DNA of 64,000 bases from an uncultured virus (IMG/VR IMGVR_UViG_3300036770_004343) (Duplodnaviria > Heunggongvirae > Uroviricota > Caudoviricetes). The stretch's first letter is position 1. Each line of letters starts with the position of its first letter. A program made the translations under genes and the position numbers. Of this stretch, positions 6,717-12,185 are shown piece by piece. The stretch spans positions 1-64,000 of IMG/VR virus record IMGVR_UViG_3300036770_004343. The stretch is one strand, 5' to 3'. Under the pieces are notes generated by a model, which had not been told where the DNA came from, made no database searches, and saw only the letters and a program-made list of their open reading frames with translations.

Positions 6717-7519
6717 AACTCTATTTGATGATAAAAACACATAATATAACCGGCAAAAAATATTTATGCAAAAAACAAGCTAGAAGTGATGTAGAGGCTG
6801 TTAAATACACAGGATCAGGTCTTAAATGGAAACCACATTTAAAAGAATTTGGCAAAAATTTTACTACTGAAATTTTGTTTGTTTGTCCAATTGAAAACAA
6901 GAAGGAATTTAGAAAAATAGCTATAGATTATAGTTATAAACTTAATATTTTAAGTGATTCAAATTGGATGAATATGATATTAGAAGATGGCGGTGGTGGT
7001 TCAACATCAGAAACAAATGGTAGTAAAGGTAAAAAATGGATTTATAAAGATGAACAAAGAAAAAGTGTATGTCAAAGTGTATTGCAAGAGTATCTATCAA
7101 ATGGTTGGACTCTTGGATTTCCAGAAAAATTTAAAAAAATCATTTCTGATTATAGCAAAGGAAAAATTCCGTGGAATAAAAATAAAAGTTTAAAACTTCC
7201 ACATGAATATACATCAAGAATTTATAAAAAGAAATATAATACAAATAAAAATAAAAAGAATGAATATACTAGTGAACTTAGAAGTTTAATTGCAAAAGAA
7301 TGTTTAAATAGACCAGAAGTATTATTGAAATTTAAACAACCAAGAAAATCCCCAATTACAGCAAAAAATGTAACCACGAATGAAATTAAAACTCTTGGTA
7401 GAAGACAATGGCATGATGTTCACCAAATAGATTATAGGAAACTTTTGAAGGGATATACATCAAAAGGATGGAAGATGGTAGTGGTACCGGGACTTGAACC
7501 CGGAACTTCACCCTTATAA
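6713..7519 (+). CDS. Free-standing GIY-YIG (Seg-like) homing endonuclease
   Basis: KLYLMIKTHNITGKKYL...YTGSG, later N; NUMOD-like PWNK repeat; sits beside the tRNA array. Confidence 0.75.
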   Translation: MKLYLMIKTHNITGKKYLCKKQARSDVEAVKYTGSGLKWKPHLKEFGKNFTTEILFVCPIENKKEFRKIAIDYSYKLNILSDSNWMNMILEDGGGGSTSETNGSKGKKWIYKDEQRKSVCQSVLQEYLSNGWTLGFPEKFKKIISDYSKGKIPWNKNKSLKLPHEYTSRIYKKKYNTNKNKKNEYTSELRSLIAKECLNRPEVLLKFKQPRKSPITAKNVTTNEIKTLGRRQWHDVHQIDYRKLLKGYTSKGWKMVVVPGLEPGTSPL

Positions 7520-7552
7520 GGAGTGTACTCTAACCACTTGAGTTATACCACT
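7476..7552 (-). tRNA. tRNA-Ile (UAU)
   Basis: AGTGGTA/TACCACT acceptor, CACTC-CTTATAA-GGGTG anticodon arm, TTCAAGT T-loop, encoded CCA. Confidence 0.9.
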
Positions 7553-7561
7553 ATCAAAAAA

Positions 7562-7641
7562 TGGAGCGGTGTCTCGGACTTATTTATTCACCGGCCTTCT
7601 CACTGGAATGTGAACGTGCTCCTCATAGACACTAACACCGC
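7562..7641 (-). tRNA. Aberrant tRNA-Gly-like (UCC in a 6-nt loop; non-canonical T arm)
   Basis: GCGGTGT/ACACCGC acceptor + U73 + CCA; TTCAC-ATTCCA-GTGAG; no TTC T-loop. Confidence 0.6.
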
Positions 7642-7649
7642 ATTAAAAT

Positions 7650-7722
7650 TGGAGCGGGTCCGAACTTTGCATTTCGCCTTTTAGTCTGGTAGACTAACGT
7701 GCTCTCTTTACACTTGACCCGC
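7650..7722 (-). tRNA. Aberrant tRNA-Gly-like (ACC anticodon)
   Basis: GCGGGTC/GACCCGC acceptor + U73 + CCA; TTAGT-CTACCAG-ACTAA; D-loop lacks GG; 4-bp T stem CGAA/TTCG. Confidence 0.65.
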
Positions 7723-7732
7723 ATCTTAAATC

Positions 7733-8035
7733 AAAATAGGAAGGACTAATGATTACCTCCAAGTTTCAGAATCACGACTGGTTATTCATCCACAGTCCAC
7801 ACGGTTAATTACTCCTTGTGTTAATGACTGATGGGATTTGTTTTTCCCACAACGGGCTACGATTTATCATTTATATTTTAGCTACGATCCCGATACGCTC
7901 AAATTCAAGGTTGTACGACCTCAAATTCTCCATAGATTTACCCTCCATAACTCTTACTCCAACCAATATACAACGTTTTTCAACGCCATATATTGTGCGT
8001 TACAACTAAACTAATCGTTGTTCCGCCACTATCTT
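7733..8035 (-). ncRNA. Candidate ~300-nt structured ncRNA, family unassigned
   Basis: Ends pair (AAGATAG/CTATTTT); internal helices CAATATAT/GTATATTG with a GAAA tetraloop, TTTGAGGT/ACCTTGAA, TGGGA/TCCCA, GACTG/CAGTC, TGATT/AATCA; lies within the tRNA transcript. Confidence 0.6.
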
Positions 8036-8038
8036 AAA

Positions 8039-8051
8039 TTGTTAAAGAACT
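8039..8051 (-). promoter_or_regulatory. boxA-like antitermination element
   Basis: AGTTCTTTAACAA versus rrn boxA TGCTCTTTAACA. Confidence 0.55.
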
Positions 8052-8052
8052 A

Positions 8053-8186
8053 TTGAAAAAGTTGATGGGACTTGAACCCACATACATAACGTCTATTTGT
8101 AGTTATATCGTTAATCGGCGGTTTTCCCCGTGTCTACAACTTTGGGTACCGACCTCCTGCTACGCCATTCGCTACAACCTTCTCAA
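8053..8186 (-). ncRNA. tRNA-like RNA with the anticodon arm replaced by a ~75-nt insert
   Basis: 12-bp terminal stem, TA linker, D-loop with GG, GTGGG-TTCAAGT-CCCAT T arm; no encoded CCA. Confidence 0.65.
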
Positions 8187-8194
8187 TTGAAAAA

Positions 8195-8472
8195 TGGTAG
8201 GCGTGAGTGGATTCGAACCACCGCTTTACAGATTTTCGTACCACTATAATTTTCATTACACATTTCTGTTTTGTGGTCTGGACTTTCTCTTCATCATAAC
8301 ATTTCTGTTTTAGATGTTTGCCGTTAAGTCTCTACACCTTCTCATTTCTGAGCTTGGCTCGGGATTGGCAGTTAAGCTTTCCCCGAATTTGACAAATTCT
8401 ACTTTAGAGATTTCTCTCTAAGCACTCAATTTACGCTAAAGTCTGTTGACTCTTCCGCTGGTCTACACGCCC
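8195..8472 (-). tRNA. tRNA-Leu (UAA), intron-containing (exons 8439-8472 and 8195-8236), short variable loop
   Basis: GGGCGTG/CACGCCT acceptor, spliced loop ACAGA-CTT^AAAA-TCTGT, TTCGAAT T-loop, CCA. Confidence 0.85.
8237..8438 (-). ncRNA. Group I intron (IC3-like, ~202 nt, no ORF) in the tRNA-Leu(UAA) anticodon
   Basis: P1 ACTT/GAGT with U.G at the splice site; core AAATTCGGGGAA, AATCCCGAG, GTAGAGACT, AAGAGAAAGTCC; terminal omega-G. Confidence 0.9.
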
Positions 8473-8513
8473 ATTTAAATTACTTACAAAGAACTATTAC
8501 TTACTACTCTTTC

Positions 8514-8541
8514 ATCTTACCACATCTTACTTACTTGTCAA
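8514..8541 (-). promoter_or_regulatory. sigma70-type promoter
   Basis: TTGACA-N16-TAAGAT with TG extended -10. Confidence 0.7.
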
Positions 8542-8561
8542 ACAAGTTTTTCAGAAAAAAA

Positions 8562-8645
8562 TGGTAGGGATGGAGGGACTTGCACCCCCACGGTTTTACC
8601 CACGGCTTTTTGAGAGCCGCATGTCTTCTGTTCCATCACATCCCC
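8562..8645 (-). tRNA. tRNA-Leu (CAA)
   Basis: GGGGATG/CATCCCT, CGGCT-CTCAAAA-AGCCG, long variable arm, T-loop TGCAAGT, CCA. Confidence 0.85.
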
Positions 8646-8655
8646 GTTTTTAAAA

Positions 8656-8749
8656 TGGTGGTTCCGCCCGGATTCGAACCGAGACCGTGCTCAAATCTAG
8701 AGCTTATCAACGTTATAAGCGTTGCGTTCTACCGTTAAACTACGGAACC
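8656..8749 (-). tRNA. tRNA-Ile (UAU) with a long variable arm
   Basis: GGTTCCG/CGGAACC, CAACG-CTTATAA-CGTTG, 24-nt variable region with GCTC-TAGATTT-GAGC hairpin, CCA. Confidence 0.85.
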
Positions 8750-8755
8750 ACTAAA

Positions 8756-8834
8756 TGGTAGCGGGGACAGGATTTGAACCTGTGACCTCCTGGTTATGAG
8801 CCAAGCGAGCTGATCCGGGCTGCTCCACCCCGCA
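8756..8834 (-). tRNA. tRNA-fMet-like (CAU)
   Basis: T1:T72 mismatch, GCGGGG stem, CTTGG-CTCATAA-CCAGG, TTCAAAT T-loop, CCA. Confidence 0.85.
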
Positions 8835-8841
8835 AATTGTT

Positions 8842-8854
8842 TTGTTAAAGAACT
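8842..8854 (-). promoter_or_regulatory. boxA-like element
   Basis: AGTTCTTTAACAA just downstream of a promoter. Confidence 0.55.
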
Positions 8855-8865
8855 AACTAAAAATT

Positions 8866-8893
8866 ATCTTATCACACATTGATGTTTTGTCAA
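8866..8893 (-). promoter_or_regulatory. sigma70-type promoter
   Basis: TTGACA-N16-TAAGAT. Confidence 0.7.
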
Positions 8894-8990
8894 CATCTAA
8901 AATCGTCGCCGGTCTTTTAATTGGCGCTTTAATCCTCTGGTGGGGAACCAACTCAAGTGTCCTATTAATCGGGTATTCTCCGGGCGTAAA

Positions 8991-9062
8991 TGGTTGGAAC
9001 GGTGGGTGCTGCCCCCACTTAAACTGGCTTATGAAACCTGTTTCTTTGCTGAAAGCGCTCCA
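8991..9062 (-). tRNA. Aberrant CAU-anticodon tRNA-like gene
   Basis: TGGAGCG/CGTTCCA + A + CCA; D arm CTTT-CAGC-AAAG without the 8-9 linker; loop TTCATAA; T-loop GGCAGCA. Confidence 0.6.
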
Positions 9063-9069
9063 ATTAAAA

Positions 9070-9146
9070 TGGTTGCTGAAGCGTAGGAATCGCACCTACT
9101 TAATGAGTGGTTATGAGCCACCCCCAGATCTAACCTGCCGCCAGCT
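9070..9146 (-). tRNA. Aberrant CAU-anticodon tRNA-like gene (initiator-like 1:72 mismatch)
   Basis: GGGTGG-CTCATAA-CCACTC 6-bp anticodon stem, GTAGG-TGCGATT-CCTAC, bulged acceptor, CCA. Confidence 0.6.
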
Positions 9147-9156
9147 ATTAAATTGT

Positions 9157-9288
9157 GTTGGTTTCGATAATACACGGAGGTTTATTTCAACGAACTAGCG
9201 TTTTTTATTGACTCACAATTATCATTTTTTTCTCAGGTTTGTACGCTTTTCAGCGTTCCATCAATCTGATACTCTATTTTCCACCAAC
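9157..9288 (-). ncRNA. Candidate ~130-nt structured RNA
   Basis: GTTGGT/ACCAAC closing stem, ACGCT-GAAA-AGCGT, TCAG/CTGA, TGATAAT/ATTATCG. Confidence 0.45.
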
Positions 9289-9362
9289 TAAAATTATCAA
9301 AAGAACAAATTAAAAATTGTGTTGGGTGTGTTTATTGAATACTCTATCCACCCAACAAACAG

Positions 9363-9391
9363 AGTATACCATACGCTAACCCCGCAACCAA
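9363..9391 (-). promoter_or_regulatory. Extended -10 promoter
   Basis: TTGGTT-N17-TATACT with TG. Confidence 0.5.
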
Positions 9392-9487
9392 GAAGTTTTT
9401 TAAGAGATCTTCCATACTCTAGGGGTGTTATGGTTTAACGCCCTCCACCAATCAGTTTTATCTTCTGGATAACTGATCAACCAGTAA

Positions 9488-9562
9488 TGGTAGAGCCACA
9501 GAGAATCGAACTCTGATTACTGCCTTGAAAGGGCGGTGTCCTGGCCGTTAGACGATGACTCC
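9488..9562 (-). tRNA. tRNA-Glu (UUC)
   Basis: GGAGTCA/TGGCTCT, CCGCC-CTTTCAA-GGCAG, TTCGATT, CCA. Confidence 0.92.
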
Positions 9563-9569
9563 GTTAAAT

Positions 9570-9645
9570 TGGTGGGACCGGACGGACTTGAACCGTCAAC
9601 CAATTCGTTAAAAGCGAACTGCTCTGCCAATTGAGCTACGATCCC
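9570..9645 (-). tRNA. tRNA-Lys (UUU)
   Basis: GGGATCG/CGGTCCC, GTTCG-CTTTTAA-CGAAT, TTCAAGT, CCA. Confidence 0.92.
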
Positions 9646-9653
9646 ATTAAAAT

Positions 9654-9666
9654 TTGTTAAAGAACT
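9654..9666 (-). promoter_or_regulatory. boxA-like element
   Basis: AGTTCTTTAACAA between the promoter and tRNA-Lys. Confidence 0.55.
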
Positions 9667-9678
9667 TATTACAAAATC

Positions 9679-9706
9679 ATCTTACCACACATTCTTAACT
9701 TGTCAA
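9679..9706 (-). promoter_or_regulatory. sigma70-type promoter
   Basis: TTGACA-N16-TAAGAT with TG. Confidence 0.7.
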
Positions 9707-9710
9707 GTAT

Positions 9711-9818
9711 TTCTTTGTTCTTTGTTGGTGACCCCCTTCGGTTAAAGGCCGAGGCAGTTCCGCCATACGTAGATGTTCTAGAGGAGTGCTTCTCCCACCG
9801 TGCTTAAAGAACAAAGAA
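9711..9818 (-). ncRNA. Candidate ~110-nt multibranched sRNA with a 13-bp terminal inverted repeat
   Basis: TTCTTTGTTCTTT/AAAGAACAAAGAA; GC-rich interior; own promoter. Confidence 0.5.
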
Positions 9819-9839
9819 TCGTTTACTTACTACTTCTTT

Positions 9840-9867
9840 ATCTTAACATTCAATTTTCAAAGATCAA
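9840..9867 (-). promoter_or_regulatory. sigma70-type promoter
   Basis: TTGATC-N16-TAAGAT. Confidence 0.55.
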
Positions 9868-9935
9868 GAACTTTCTTTCAAAAGTTTTGAGGTAAAATAT
9901 AAATATAATCAAATATTAGTAAATTACCGAAAAAG

Positions 9936-10011
9936 TGGTGTCCCCGCCAGGAATTGAACCTGGACCAGAGAGGTAGAAGCTCTCTGCTCTATCCATTTAA
10001 GCTACGAGGAC
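9936..10011 (-). tRNA. tRNA-Arg (UCU)
   Basis: GTCCTCG/CGGGGAC, GAGAG-CTTCTAC-CTCTC, TTCAATT, CCA. Confidence 0.92.
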
Positions 10012-10018
10012 ACTGAGA

Positions 10019-10351
10019 TTACTTACCGTTATCAAGTTCTTTACGAAGAGCTTTACCAAGTTCAGTTAGCTGAAACAGTGGTTCGCCGTCTTCGTTATGA
10101 CCGGATACATATAATAGACCATCTTCTACCATTTTGTCAACTGTTTCTTTAACTTCTGACAACACAAGTTCGTTATAGATTACTTCTGCTTCAAACTCAT
10201 TGCATTCAAGTTCTTTCATAATTACTTGAATACAAGCTTCTTTTTCCTCGACTTTGACTTGTTCTTCAACTTTATCAACGTCTAAGTTGGAACAATGACT
10301 GAGCAGATCATCGATTGATCCGGTAAAGTTGTCTGTGATATATTTATCCAT
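10019..10351 (-). CDS. Hypothetical protein with a winged-helix-like C-terminus
   Basis: MVEDGLL...FQLTELGK. Confidence 0.6.
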   Translation of the reverse strand: MDKYITDNFTGSIDDLLSHCSNLDVDKVEEQVKVEEKEACIQVIMKELECNEFEAEVIYNELVLSEVKETVDKMVEDGLLYVSGHNEDGEPLFQLTELGKALRKELDNGK

Positions 10352-10365
10352 TGTATGGTCTTTTA

Positions 10366-10656
10366 TTAGGCTACCCAGGCGAATTCTACGTTCTTGTAAT
10401 AACGAACGGATCGCTTTGCGATGCTGTCAAGTGACTTACTGACATTGTGGGGAACACGAACATTCTTACCCCAACCATTTTCAGCTCGGCCTAGAGCAAT
10501 AGCAAATCCCTTGCGTTTATCAAAACGATCACCAGCCTTTGTATTGGTATAACTCCAACCAACACGAACTGAGTCATTAATAACTGTGGCTACCACATAA
10601 CCACGGGGTTGACCATTGCGGTCACGTACCAACTGCTTGAGTGTAGTGTCTTTCAT
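10366..10656 (-). CDS. Conserved hypothetical phage protein (start likely ATG 10656)
   Basis: VGWS...DRFDKRKG..IALGRA motif; this start avoids overlap with the upstream ORF. Confidence 0.65.
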   Translation of the reverse strand: MKDTTLKQLVRDRNGQPRGYVVATVINDSVRVGWSYTNTKAGDRFDKRKGFAIALGRAENGWGKNVRVPHNVSKSLDSIAKRSVRYYKNVEFAWVA

Positions 10657-11345: not shown

Positions 11346-11384
11346 ATTTTTTATTTTTTGTTAATGTTAACCGACTACAAATTC

Positions 11385-11413
11385 ATCTTACCACATACTT
11401 TAAACAATGTCAA
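11385..11413 (-). promoter_or_regulatory. sigma70-type promoter
   Basis: TTGACA-N17-TAAGAT with TG. Confidence 0.75.
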
Positions 11414-11642: not shown

Positions 11643-12185
11643 TTAGTTGTTATCAATAAAGTTACGATAAAATCCCATCACAATTCCACTGGTAGTACCC
11701 ACATTAAGTGAACGTACACTACCATACGCAGGAATGGTTACAATATAATCAGCATTGTCAAGAATATAATCACTCAACCCACTCTTTTCTTCACCAAAGA
11801 CAAACATTGGCTTATCTACACCAGTAAATACCCAGTGGTTAAAAATAGATACAGTCTTGTCACTATACTTGGGAATGTTGTTTTCTACTGCAATTAGTGT
11901 ATAACCATTGTCATTCACATACGCAACAAAGTCTTGTTCTGTCTTGATGTGACTAAGATCGGTGTAATGATGAGTGCCAACAGTACCACGGCGATCCCAC
12001 TGCTTACTACCACCAACATACATTGCTTCCTTGAAGCCAAAGAAGTTGGCGTTGCGTACTAGAGTGGATAGATTAAAGTCACCGTTAACGTGCATCATAG
12101 CAACACCAGCGTCAATACAGGTGTCCTTACAATACGACTTGATATCGTCCACACTCTTGTTCTTCAGATGATCCAAAACATTCAT
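11643..12185 (-). CDS. SpoU/TrmH-family (SPOUT) RNA 2'-O-methyltransferase
   Basis: NLSTLVRNA, VFGEEKSGLS, IPAYGSVRSLNV. Confidence 0.88.
   Translation of the reverse strand: MNVLDHLKNKSVDDIKSYCKDTCIDAGVAMMHVNGDFNLSTLVRNANFFGFKEAMYVGGSKQWDRRGTVGTHHYTDLSHIKTEQDFVAYVNDNGYTLIAVENNIPKYSDKTVSIFNHWVFTGVDKPMFVFGEEKSGLSDYILDNADYIVTIPAYGSVRSLNVGTTSGIVMGFYRNFIDNN

Follow-up and report, generated by a model that had tools for sequence, protein, structure and literature searches.

As was only recently published, the Mom protein of bacteriophage Mu moves glycine from Gly-tRNAGly onto the N6 position of adenine in double-stranded DNA, and the product rearranges to N6-carbamoylmethyl-deoxyadenosine (Silva et al., Nat Commun 2026, PMC13219725). 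In the accessible parts of that paper, all three Escherichia coli tRNA-Gly isoacceptors are reported to work with Mu Mom, glycine carried on tRNA-Ala does not, R111 and S124 are indispensable residues, and the tRNA is treated by the authors as a resource scavenged from the host (PMC13219725). Non-proteogenic tRNA-Gly species are described from staphylococci, where TGC or TGT replaces TTC in the T loop and binding to elongation factor Tu (EF-Tu) is weak; the available text of the same source gives the bacterial glycyl-tRNA synthetase (GlyRS) identity elements as G1-C72, C2-G71, U73, C35 and C36, and attributes the EF-Tu affinity of the tRNA body almost wholly to the first three T-stem pairs (PMC7826273). 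Here, two tandem tRNA-Gly-like genes, g1 and g2, are described from a 64,000-nucleotide stretch of DNA of an uncultured Caudoviricetes virus (IMG/VR record IMGVR_UViG_3300036770_004343, positions 1 to 64,000; this whole stretch is hereafter the window). Both genes are real, conserved and structurally constrained, and they share the hallmarks of an RNA family that is tightly linked to mom genes. With a probability of about one half, they are functional phage derivatives of tRNA-Gly that would be charged by GlyRS and serve as glycine donors for Mom while being insulated from translation.

Both genes lie on the minus strand. g1 (7722..7650; 73 nt) has an ACC anticodon and g2 (7641..7562; 80 nt) has UCC in a 6-nt loop; each ends in U73 and an encoded CCA, and a spacer of 8 nt (7642..7649) separates them. 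The acceptor stem of g1, GCGGGUC/GACCCGC, forms a perfect 7 bp and is followed by A8A9, a D stem (GUGU/GCAC) whose loop AAAGAGA has no GG, and a single G. Its anticodon stem UUAGU/ACUAA carries the loop CUACCAG (7686..7692, with ACC at 7690-7688), and the variable region is AAGG. This loop is formally of 7 nt, with U33 and A37, but C32 and G38 can pair, which leaves 5 nt. The 16-nt T arm of g1 (7661..7676) comprises a 4-bp stem, CGAA/UUCG, and a loop in which UGCAA replaces UUCGA/UUCAA. The acceptor of g2, GCGGUGU/ACACCGC, is likewise a perfect 7 bp; it is followed by UA, a GUGU/GCAC D stem around the loop CUAUGAGGA and a G, and the variable region is again AAGG. The anticodon stem of g2, UUCAC/GUGAG, holds the 6-nt loop AUUCCA (7604..7609, with UCC at 7607-7605) closed by the pair C7610-G7603, and opening this C-G pair turns it into the 8-nt loop CAUUCCAG. 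The T arm of g2 (7573..7594; 22 nt) is CCGG/CCG-A-G with a bulged A and a 13-nt loop, TGAATAAATAAGT, which begins with UG; relatives of g2 have TGCAAGT or TGTAAGT, and compared with their 7-nt loop UGCAAGU the window's g2 carries a 6-nt insertion.

As judged from sequence, fold and covariation, both genes form the canonical 7-bp acceptor, 4-bp D and 5-bp anticodon stems, and both possess the Gly identity set of G1-C72, C2-G71, G3-C70, U73, C35 and C36. G3-C70 is a further tRNA-Gly identity pair. A canonical T arm (5-bp stem and U54-U55-C56 loop) is found in neither, g1 also lacks G18G19, and the canonical 7-nt anticodon loop with U33 and unpaired positions 32 and 38 is matched by neither. The initial annotation had listed this anatomy (7-bp acceptors, U73, CCA, D stem, AAGG, no TTC T loop) correctly in every detail; the Gly identity elements that it named are present in both genes and invariant across homologs, and the staphylococcal parallel that it drew agrees with the accessible text of PMC7826273, TGC or TGT standing for TTC in the T loop there as in g1 and g2.

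The minimum-energy fold of g1 is a cloverleaf (z = -3.36; none of 200 shuffles as good), whose stability g2 does not reach (z = -1.83, with 11 of 200 shuffles equally good), its own minimum-energy structure leaving the T arm unformed. Standard tRNA detection passes over both genes: ARAGORN reports seven tRNAs in the window, normal ones that the Rfam tRNA model recovers too, and calls neither g1 nor g2, and Rfam gives no RF00005 match over 7562-7722 at the gathering score, nor at E<=10 over 7000-10500. A blastn search of g1 and g2 together against 50,697 phage records returned no match at E<=10.

Conservation within the lineage was examined in 16 distinct sequences (5 g1-type and 11 g2-type) recovered by two pattern scans of viral contigs. 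No acceptor or anticodon stem cell is unpaired (0/192), and the pairs change in step: compensatory switches from G-C to A-U occur at g1 acceptor pairs 4 and 5, pairs 1 and 3 of the g1 anticodon stem become C-G (from U-A) and G-C (from A-U) in relatives, g2 acceptor pairs 4-6 switch between G-C and A-U, and all five anticodon-stem pairs of g2 vary. The initial annotation had proposed homolog covariation as one check and random decay of the acceptor stem as one outcome that would speak against it; the copies display compensatory changes and no decay. The Gly identity set, U73 and CCA are invariant in all 16 copies. The anticodon loop and T arm of g1 are unchanged across its five variants, and the g2 anticodon loop measures 6, 7 or 8 nt among close relatives when parsed with a 5-bp stem. 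g1 is nearly invariant across contigs, against an identity of ~79-82% for the conserved element upstream of it in more distant relatives. Contigs of RNA libraries from two studies cover g1 and part of g2, which is compatible with transcription, at a low cover for which DNA carry-over is possible; the uncovered stretches 7300-7571 and 8082-8183 carry no interpretable signal.

A wider family of Gly-like phage RNAs emerged from the second scan pattern, which was taken from g1 and g2 and fixes 17 bases, namely GCG at the start, A9 plus the GUGU/GCAC-G D arm, and CCAG. At least 119 viral loci match it. Six or more of the seven acceptor pairs form in 135 of the 139 matches listed, and a second parse gives 134 listed matches with a paired acceptor, or 79 distinct sequences. 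Alignment A1 contains 74 sequences; L016, L060, L115, L120 and L121, which lack a clean acceptor or T arm, were left out. With the cloverleaf imposed on A1, 93.8% of cells are paired, compared with 69.1% in shuffles and 36-53% with slid partners, and the covariation score is 0.626 versus 0.152 in shuffles, none of 500 of which reaches the observed value. U73 lies outside the search pattern yet is found in nearly all family members listed. Position 33 in A1 can be any base, the anticodon loops are of 7 or 8 nt with C first and NCC-A-G last in every sequence, and most T stems have 4 bp and a bulged A between covarying flanks. Some family members are called tRNA-Gly (tcc, ccc, acc) by ARAGORN, others are reported as 'tRNA-???' with a two-letter anticodon, and many are missed. 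The same pattern has at least 120 matches in 596 Gb of bacterial and archaeal genomes, but only 15 of those listed combine a paired acceptor with U73, about four look like real members by eye, and one has Mom nearby; most of the listed matches were set aside as chance matches in a search space of that size.

The family is connected with Mom through its gene neighbourhood. Full 1.5-kb flanks are available for 80 of the loci, termed 'long' (39 are 'short'), and clustering of their open reading frames (ORFs) identified a Mom-family protein as the commonest neighbour of the RNA (36/80). This ORF matches Pfam family PF25680 (E 5.5e-54) and PHROG 1384, and the L011-type Mom is 32.8% identical to Mu Mom. 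A hidden Markov model (HMM) built from these Mom-family ORFs places Mom in 37 of the 80 long loci, touching the RNA, and in 15 of the 39 short ones. The remaining long loci are tRNA clusters without Mom (29/80) or hold neither (14/80, several of them chance pattern matches). The layout is not fixed: mom may run into the first bases of the RNA gene, the two may converge with mom lying over the 3' half of the RNA, or the RNA may lie upstream.

The association was also approached from the protein side, with 80 loci picked solely by likeness to one Mom subfamily (alignment A3). This reverse test avoids the bias of the RNA pattern because the loci were chosen by the Mom protein alone. A2, a Mom alignment of 17 sequences, proved too diverse to scan loci with, hence the narrower A3, and the resulting count of 80 out of 80 is valid for the A3 subfamily only: model R1 finds an RNA at the 3' end of mom in 76 loci, and the other four carry one by eye, the RNA lying on either strand. 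The 56 distinct RNAs from these loci (alignment A4) have G1, C2, G3, U73, C35 and C36 without exception. A37 is present in 54 of them, N34 is free (52 have U, 3 have A and 1 has C), and positions 32 and 38 covary as C-G (44 of 56) or U-A (11). It is thus the GlyRS set that is kept and not the decoding geometry. In 55 of the 56 the T stem has a bulged A on its 3' strand, and a subset combines D loops without GG with T loops such as UGCGAUA or UUUACAA; in most mom-adjacent RNAs the T loop is the normal GUUCGA and CCA is not encoded. The Rfam tRNA model hits the mom-adjacent RNA in one of seven loci tried (30.8 bits; threshold 29). Aeromonas phage matches to one mom-adjacent RNA proved to be ordinary cluster tRNAs and were discarded.

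A cultured representative of the arrangement is Psychrobacter phage vB_PmaS_Y8A (OQ059336.1), whose gene order ParB-Mom-TerS-TerL is that of the metagenomic loci. In the 165-nt gap between mom, annotated as hypothetical, and terS (L315, 2155-2319) lie two tandem unannotated Gly-like RNAs with a GCG-start 7-bp acceptor, U73, CCA, a bulged-A T stem, UGC T loops, a UUCCC loop and no D arm. Models R1 and R2 miss both of these D-armless RNAs, which were found by eye. They resemble g1 and g2 in being tandem, CCA-encoding and UGC-looped, differ from them in the missing D arm, and illustrate the extent to which the body of such an RNA can erode while the acceptor/T-arm half and the NCC triplet persist.

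g1 and g2 have in common with the Mom-linked RNAs a D arm, the GCG start, U73, C35C36A37, a Watson-Crick pair at 32-38 and a 4-nt variable region. The g2 loop, in its 8-nt form CAUUCCAG, is the commonest loop among RNAs beside Mom, and the bulged A of the g2 T stem sits one pair further out than in most Mom-linked members. ACC triplets, T loops of the UG type and encoded CCA ends are found in some mom-adjacent members as well (L034, L332, L419). The setting differs, in that g1 and g2 lie in a tRNA cluster and the Mom-linked members beside mom. Covariance model R2, which was built from mom-adjacent RNAs only, with none from the g1/g2 lineage, and searched over 88.6 kb, gives g1 a score of 50.0 bits (E 8e-12) and g2 one of 31.6 bits (E 2e-6).

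Mom and g-type RNAs also occur together in relatives of the window. Genome G002 (295.8 kb, 100% complete), whose family-B DNA polymerase (PolB) is 69-73% identical to that of the window, has two Mom genes, both of which keep R111 and S124, and carries g1 in a syntenic tRNA cluster; its second cluster holds canonical tRNA-Gly(UCC) and (GCC), so that g1 is redundant there for decoding. G004 (303.6 kb, 89% complete) has one Mom and a g2-type RNA, and G005 (216 kb, 100% complete, of a more distant lineage) has Mom and a single Gly-like RNA, which shows G33 and C32-G38, has UGC in its T loop and lacks GG in its D loop. The complete genome of Microcystis phage Mel-JY01 has neither Mom nor a g-type RNA. 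The complete or near-complete genomes therefore divide into three with both (G002, G004, G005) and one with neither (Mel-JY01), a tally that is suggestive rather than a test, as the genomes were picked through matches to the RNA, Mom or PolB. Three Mom-bearing fragments, G006-G008 (45-48% complete), lack PolB, so the mom of this lineage tends to lie in a part of the genome other than that of the window contig. Two candidate correspondences were rejected. The window's 410- and 268-aa ORFs were compared, as possible flanks of a lost Mom, with the 407-, 246- and 268-aa ORFs that flank Mom in G002 and have no similarity to them; a matching of two Mom paralogs to two RNA paralogs finds no support in G002, which has two Moms and g1 only.

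In the proposed mechanism, g1 and g2 would share the transcription of the minus-strand tRNA cluster and, with their perfect acceptor stem and encoded CCA, be trimmed as tRNAs are. They would be glycylated by host GlyRS, since they retain all known bacterial Gly identity elements. Their irregular T stems predict weak binding to EF-Tu-GTP, and the aberrant T arms, the D loop of g1 without GG and the C32-G38 pair, which shrinks the loop to 5-6 nt, would suit them poorly to EF-Tu and the ribosome, and the glycine that they carry would therefore stay out of translation. A Mom-family GNAT enzyme of the phage, presumably encoded in the unsequenced half of its genome, would transfer the glycyl group to N6-adenine of phage DNA, and the product would rearrange to N6-carbamoylmethyl-adenine, shielding the DNA from restriction. 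Selection appears to keep the GlyRS identity set and the acceptor end and to drop U33, loop size and T-stem regularity, all needed by EF-Tu and the ribosome. Taken with the T-stem rule for EF-Tu affinity, the kept GlyRS set and the lost decoding features favour a carrier that is charged by GlyRS, insulated from translation and consumed by Mom. The corresponding statement for the whole family is offered tentatively: many Mom phages may carry their own stripped-down tRNA-Gly cofactor, host-charged and unfit for EF-Tu and the ribosome, of which g1 and g2 would be the copies of large freshwater myoviruses. Within the literature searched, this family-level partnership of mom and RNA appears to be unpublished. 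The search found no report of a mom-linked tRNA gene, and the available text of PMC13219725, its readable supplement, the 2023 preprint and a jumbo-phage review make no mention of a phage-encoded or mom-adjacent tRNA.

Several observations weigh against Mom as the consumer. A six-frame HMM search at E<=10 found no Mom in the window, nor was one found in the overlapping record G001; together these give ~116 kb with both g1 and g2, about half of the estimated genome. G003 (173 kb, 73% complete) has a tandem RNA pair and no Mom, and no RNA lies beside the Mom of Polaribacter phage P12002L. Among 85 Mom loci of the large-phage lineage, none has an RNA within 2.5 kb of Mom, so only resemblance to the family and co-occurrence in genomes connect g1/g2 with Mom. 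Mu, as far as the accessible text of PMC13219725 goes, lacks its own tRNA gene and draws on host tRNA, whereas this phage lineage carries dedicated Gly-like RNAs. g1 itself has no bulged A, and its formally 7-nt loop contains U33. Furthermore, R2 gives the canonical tRNA-Gly(UCC) and (GCC) of G002 48.6 and 39.8 bits, respectively, next to 50.0 for g1 and 31.6 for g2, and the identity of g1 and g2 is 0.69-0.70 to the best Mom-adjacent RNAs against 0.58-0.68 to canonical tRNA-Gly, which leaves the classes unseparated. R1, R2 and pairwise identity were accordingly rejected as classifiers, since they fail to separate g1 and g2 from canonical phage tRNA-Gly.

The main rival, judged unlikely, is that g1 and g2 are unusual but working elongator tRNAs, with ACC reading GGU and UCC reading GGA/GGG in an AT-rich phage. 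ACC and UCC match the two commonest glycine codons of the phage, GGT (51%) and GGA (30%) among 785 in 42 ORFs, and the tRNAs with which they are tightly clustered (Ile-UAU, Leu-UAA, Leu-CAA, Lys-UUU, Glu-UUC and Arg-UCU) all read A/U-ending codons, so that both anticodons would make useful decoders. No canonical tRNA-Gly was seen in the known ~116 kb, g1 has U33, A37 and a formally 7-nt loop, and 29 of the 80 long family loci are tRNA clusters, in some of which the family member is called tRNA-Gly by ARAGORN and is the only such call in the ~3-kb locus. The oddity of g1 and g2 may also be a habit of the lineage, given that their cluster holds other aberrant tRNA-like genes of other identity. 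Set against decoding are the C-G-closed 6-nt loop of g2 and its variation between 6, 7 and 8 nt in close relatives (5-bp-stem parse), the free choice of base at position 33 and the covarying Watson-Crick pair at 32-38 in the family, and T arms that lack UUC and have 4-bp stems with a bulge or oversized loops, 13 nt in the case of g2. The Rfam tRNA model misses both genes at E<=10, and G002 has canonical tRNA-Gly(UCC) and (GCC) besides g1. A34, moreover, is not the usual way of reading GGU. Donation to Mom and decoding are in any case not mutually exclusive.

That g1 and g2 act as decoys for, or replacements against, host defence toxins hitting tRNA-Gly, through CCA-end modification or acetylation of Gly-tRNAGly, is improbable. 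Conservation in g1 and g2 falls chiefly on the acceptor end and the Gly identity set, and the toxSAS enzyme FaRel2 selects tRNA-Gly and tRNA-Thr by the acceptor stem, according to the portion of the report available (bioRxiv 10.1101/2024.07.05.602228); GNAT toxins acting on charged tRNA are mentioned in the accessible text of PMC13219725. A replacement tRNA must decode, however, and the loop geometry argues otherwise, while the near-obligate placement beside mom in one Mom subfamily would be left unexplained; no toxin or antitoxin of this kind was encountered, although no search aimed at one was made. The structural arguments for a Mom donor apply equally to a glycine carrier serving some other non-ribosomal enzyme, be it a Fem-like transferase acting on peptides or cell wall or an unknown one that depends on aminoacyl-tRNA, and the window is rich in sugar and surface-modification genes; this alternative is nevertheless quite improbable, as the family-wide neighbour is Mom and as FemAB (PF02388) and Acetyltransf_6 (PF13480), the two families searched for, are unmatched in all five lineage records, two of them complete. 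The initial annotation had proposed glycine carriers for a non-ribosomal reaction, with the Fem transferases as its model: this proposal is supported in part, in that structure and conservation fit such carriers, and Mom, which it did not name, is a likelier consumer than a Fem-type enzyme. Decaying, functionless pseudogenes would account for the aberrant T arms and the silence of the tRNA finders and yet are extremely improbable in view of the fully paired stems with compensatory changes in 16 distinct copies, the near-invariance of g1 beside a diverging upstream element, the retention of U73 and CCA in all copies, and the RNA-library contigs of two studies over g1 and part of g2.

If the Mom-donor reading is correct, g1 and g2 would belong to the first tRNA dedicated to DNA modification and to a second, independent invention of non-proteogenic tRNA-Gly. 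Phages could then supply a dedicated RNA cofactor for DNA hypermodification, which would explain the diversion of glycine from translation late in infection, and the RNA, which tRNA finders do not see, would provide a sequence marker from which momylated phage genomes could be predicted in metagenomes. The family offers natural minimal substrates, down to D-armless forms, for studies of recognition by Mom and GlyRS, and the partnership is experimentally accessible in an isolate. The worth of the window lies in a tandem pair (ACC and UCC) that is well conserved, in a lineage of freshwater phages that is abundant.

The cluster that holds g1 and g2 spans 7476-10011 on the minus strand in the order Arg-UCU, Lys, Glu, Met, a long-arm UAU tRNA, Leu-CAA, an intron-split Leu-UAA, a 304-nt non-coding element, g1, g2 and Ile-UAU, which makes g1 and g2 the third-last and second-last genes. 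The last gene, 9 nt downstream of g2, is a canonical tRNA-Ile(UAU) (7476..7552, minus strand) found by ARAGORN and Rfam. The window has a G+C content of 32% and encodes PolB, a clamp-loader ATPase, a large lysozyme-bearing protein, 2-oxoglutarate (2OG)-Fe(II) oxygenases and many sugar-pathway genes; its sugar and surface-modification genes include glycosyltransferases, an aminotransferase and a radical SAM protein. Its PolB is nearest to that of Microcystis phage Mel-JY01 (42% identity), followed by T4-like cyanophages (28%). Record G001 (94.8 kb, estimated 41% complete) is identical across the tRNA cluster and starts inside PolB, so that it overlaps the window in part, and the union of the two amounts to ~116 kb of a phage estimated at ~230 kb.

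The element immediately upstream of g1 (7734-8037, minus strand) is a conserved non-coding sequence of ~304 nt with no Rfam match; indels among relatives indicate that it holds no conserved ORF. It is 79-100% identical along its full length in lineage loci, and RNAalifold on 11 copies gives 81 pairs, 14 of them with compensatory changes, with the two ends pairing together. In RNA-library contigs from freshwater, rivers and lakes its word depth is far above that of the flanks, up to ~13,000 (run X1) versus 5 over g1. A contig joining 8036/8037 to 7734, with three letters between, is found in three runs of three studies; the junction is either a circular RNA or tandem gene copies, both of which fit the contigs. 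An invariant 5' motif of the element occurs in 39 viral contigs, 18 of which have a g-type RNA ~300 nt downstream.

Other members of the cluster are also unusual. A third aberrant tRNA-like gene (8991-9062, minus strand; fold z = -2.63), uncalled by ARAGORN and Rfam, has the acceptor UGGAGCG/CGUUCCA, a D stem of 4 bp that encloses a 4-nt loop, CAU in an anticodon-like arm, and a T arm GUGGG/CCCAC around GGCAGCA, followed by A73 and CCA; the related contig L033 carries an identical copy, and the T arm is found again in L053, L075 and L085. A type II tRNA with a ~21-nt variable arm, A73 and the anticodon UAU (8656-8749, minus strand) is called tRNA-Ile(tat), and its pairing with the type I tRNA-Ile(UAU) at 7476-7552 is also found in relatives. 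The tRNA-Leu(UAA) gene (8198-8483, minus strand) is split by a group I intron (Rfam RF00028, 74.8 bits, 8256-8448), and relatives L006, L008 and L009 have an uninterrupted tRNA-Leu(taa) at the matching place, as called by ARAGORN. Between this gene and the 304-nt element, the segment 8054-8190 (minus strand) ends in a canonical-looking T arm, GGGUUCAAGUCCC, with no matching full tRNA and a fold no better than shuffles (z = -1.16). An ORF of the SpoU family of RNA 2'-O-methyltransferases (PF00588, E 4e-23) lies at 11643-12185 on the minus strand, 1.6 kb off the cluster, and may be a tRNA-modifying enzyme of the phage. A ~54-nt repeat, 77% identical, occurs at 9653-9706, upstream of tRNA-Lys, and at about 11357-11413, ~1.7 kb away; it surfaced as a second hit in the comparison of the cluster with G001.

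Among described systems, the gene cluster as a whole resembles those of T4-type phages, with tightly spaced, co-oriented genes, encoded CCA and a T4-like genome (PolB, clamp loader). Besides its tRNAs, the T4 cluster contains species 1 and 2, two stable RNAs of unknown function. g1 and g2 differ from ordinary phage tRNA-cluster genes in failing tRNA models and in having no blastn similarity to isolate phages. The Mom system of Mu is comparable in its enzyme, R111 and S124 being kept in the Mom homologs of the complete relatives, and differs in its RNA: in one Mom subfamily an RNA gene abuts mom, and Mu has no such gene in the available description (PMC13219725). The closest counterparts of the RNAs themselves are NP1-NP3 of Staphylococcus aureus and tRNA-Gly Ia/Ib of S. 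epidermidis, which the accessible text of PMC7826273 describes as glycine donors for FmhB, FemA and FemB that coexist with canonical tRNA-Gly. These RNAs and g1/g2 alike combine the full GlyRS identity set with a TGC-type T loop and altered D/T regions, g1 lacking the GG of the D loop. The staphylococcal RNAs are chromosomal, belong to a lineage that is reported, in the portions available, only from staphylococci, and have regular 5-bp T stems and Fem partners; g1 and g2, unlike them, are phage genes whose T arms are 4-bp, bulged or oversized and whose loop is closed by C32-G38, and one of the two has ACC. The likeness between the two would thus be one of working and not of membership.

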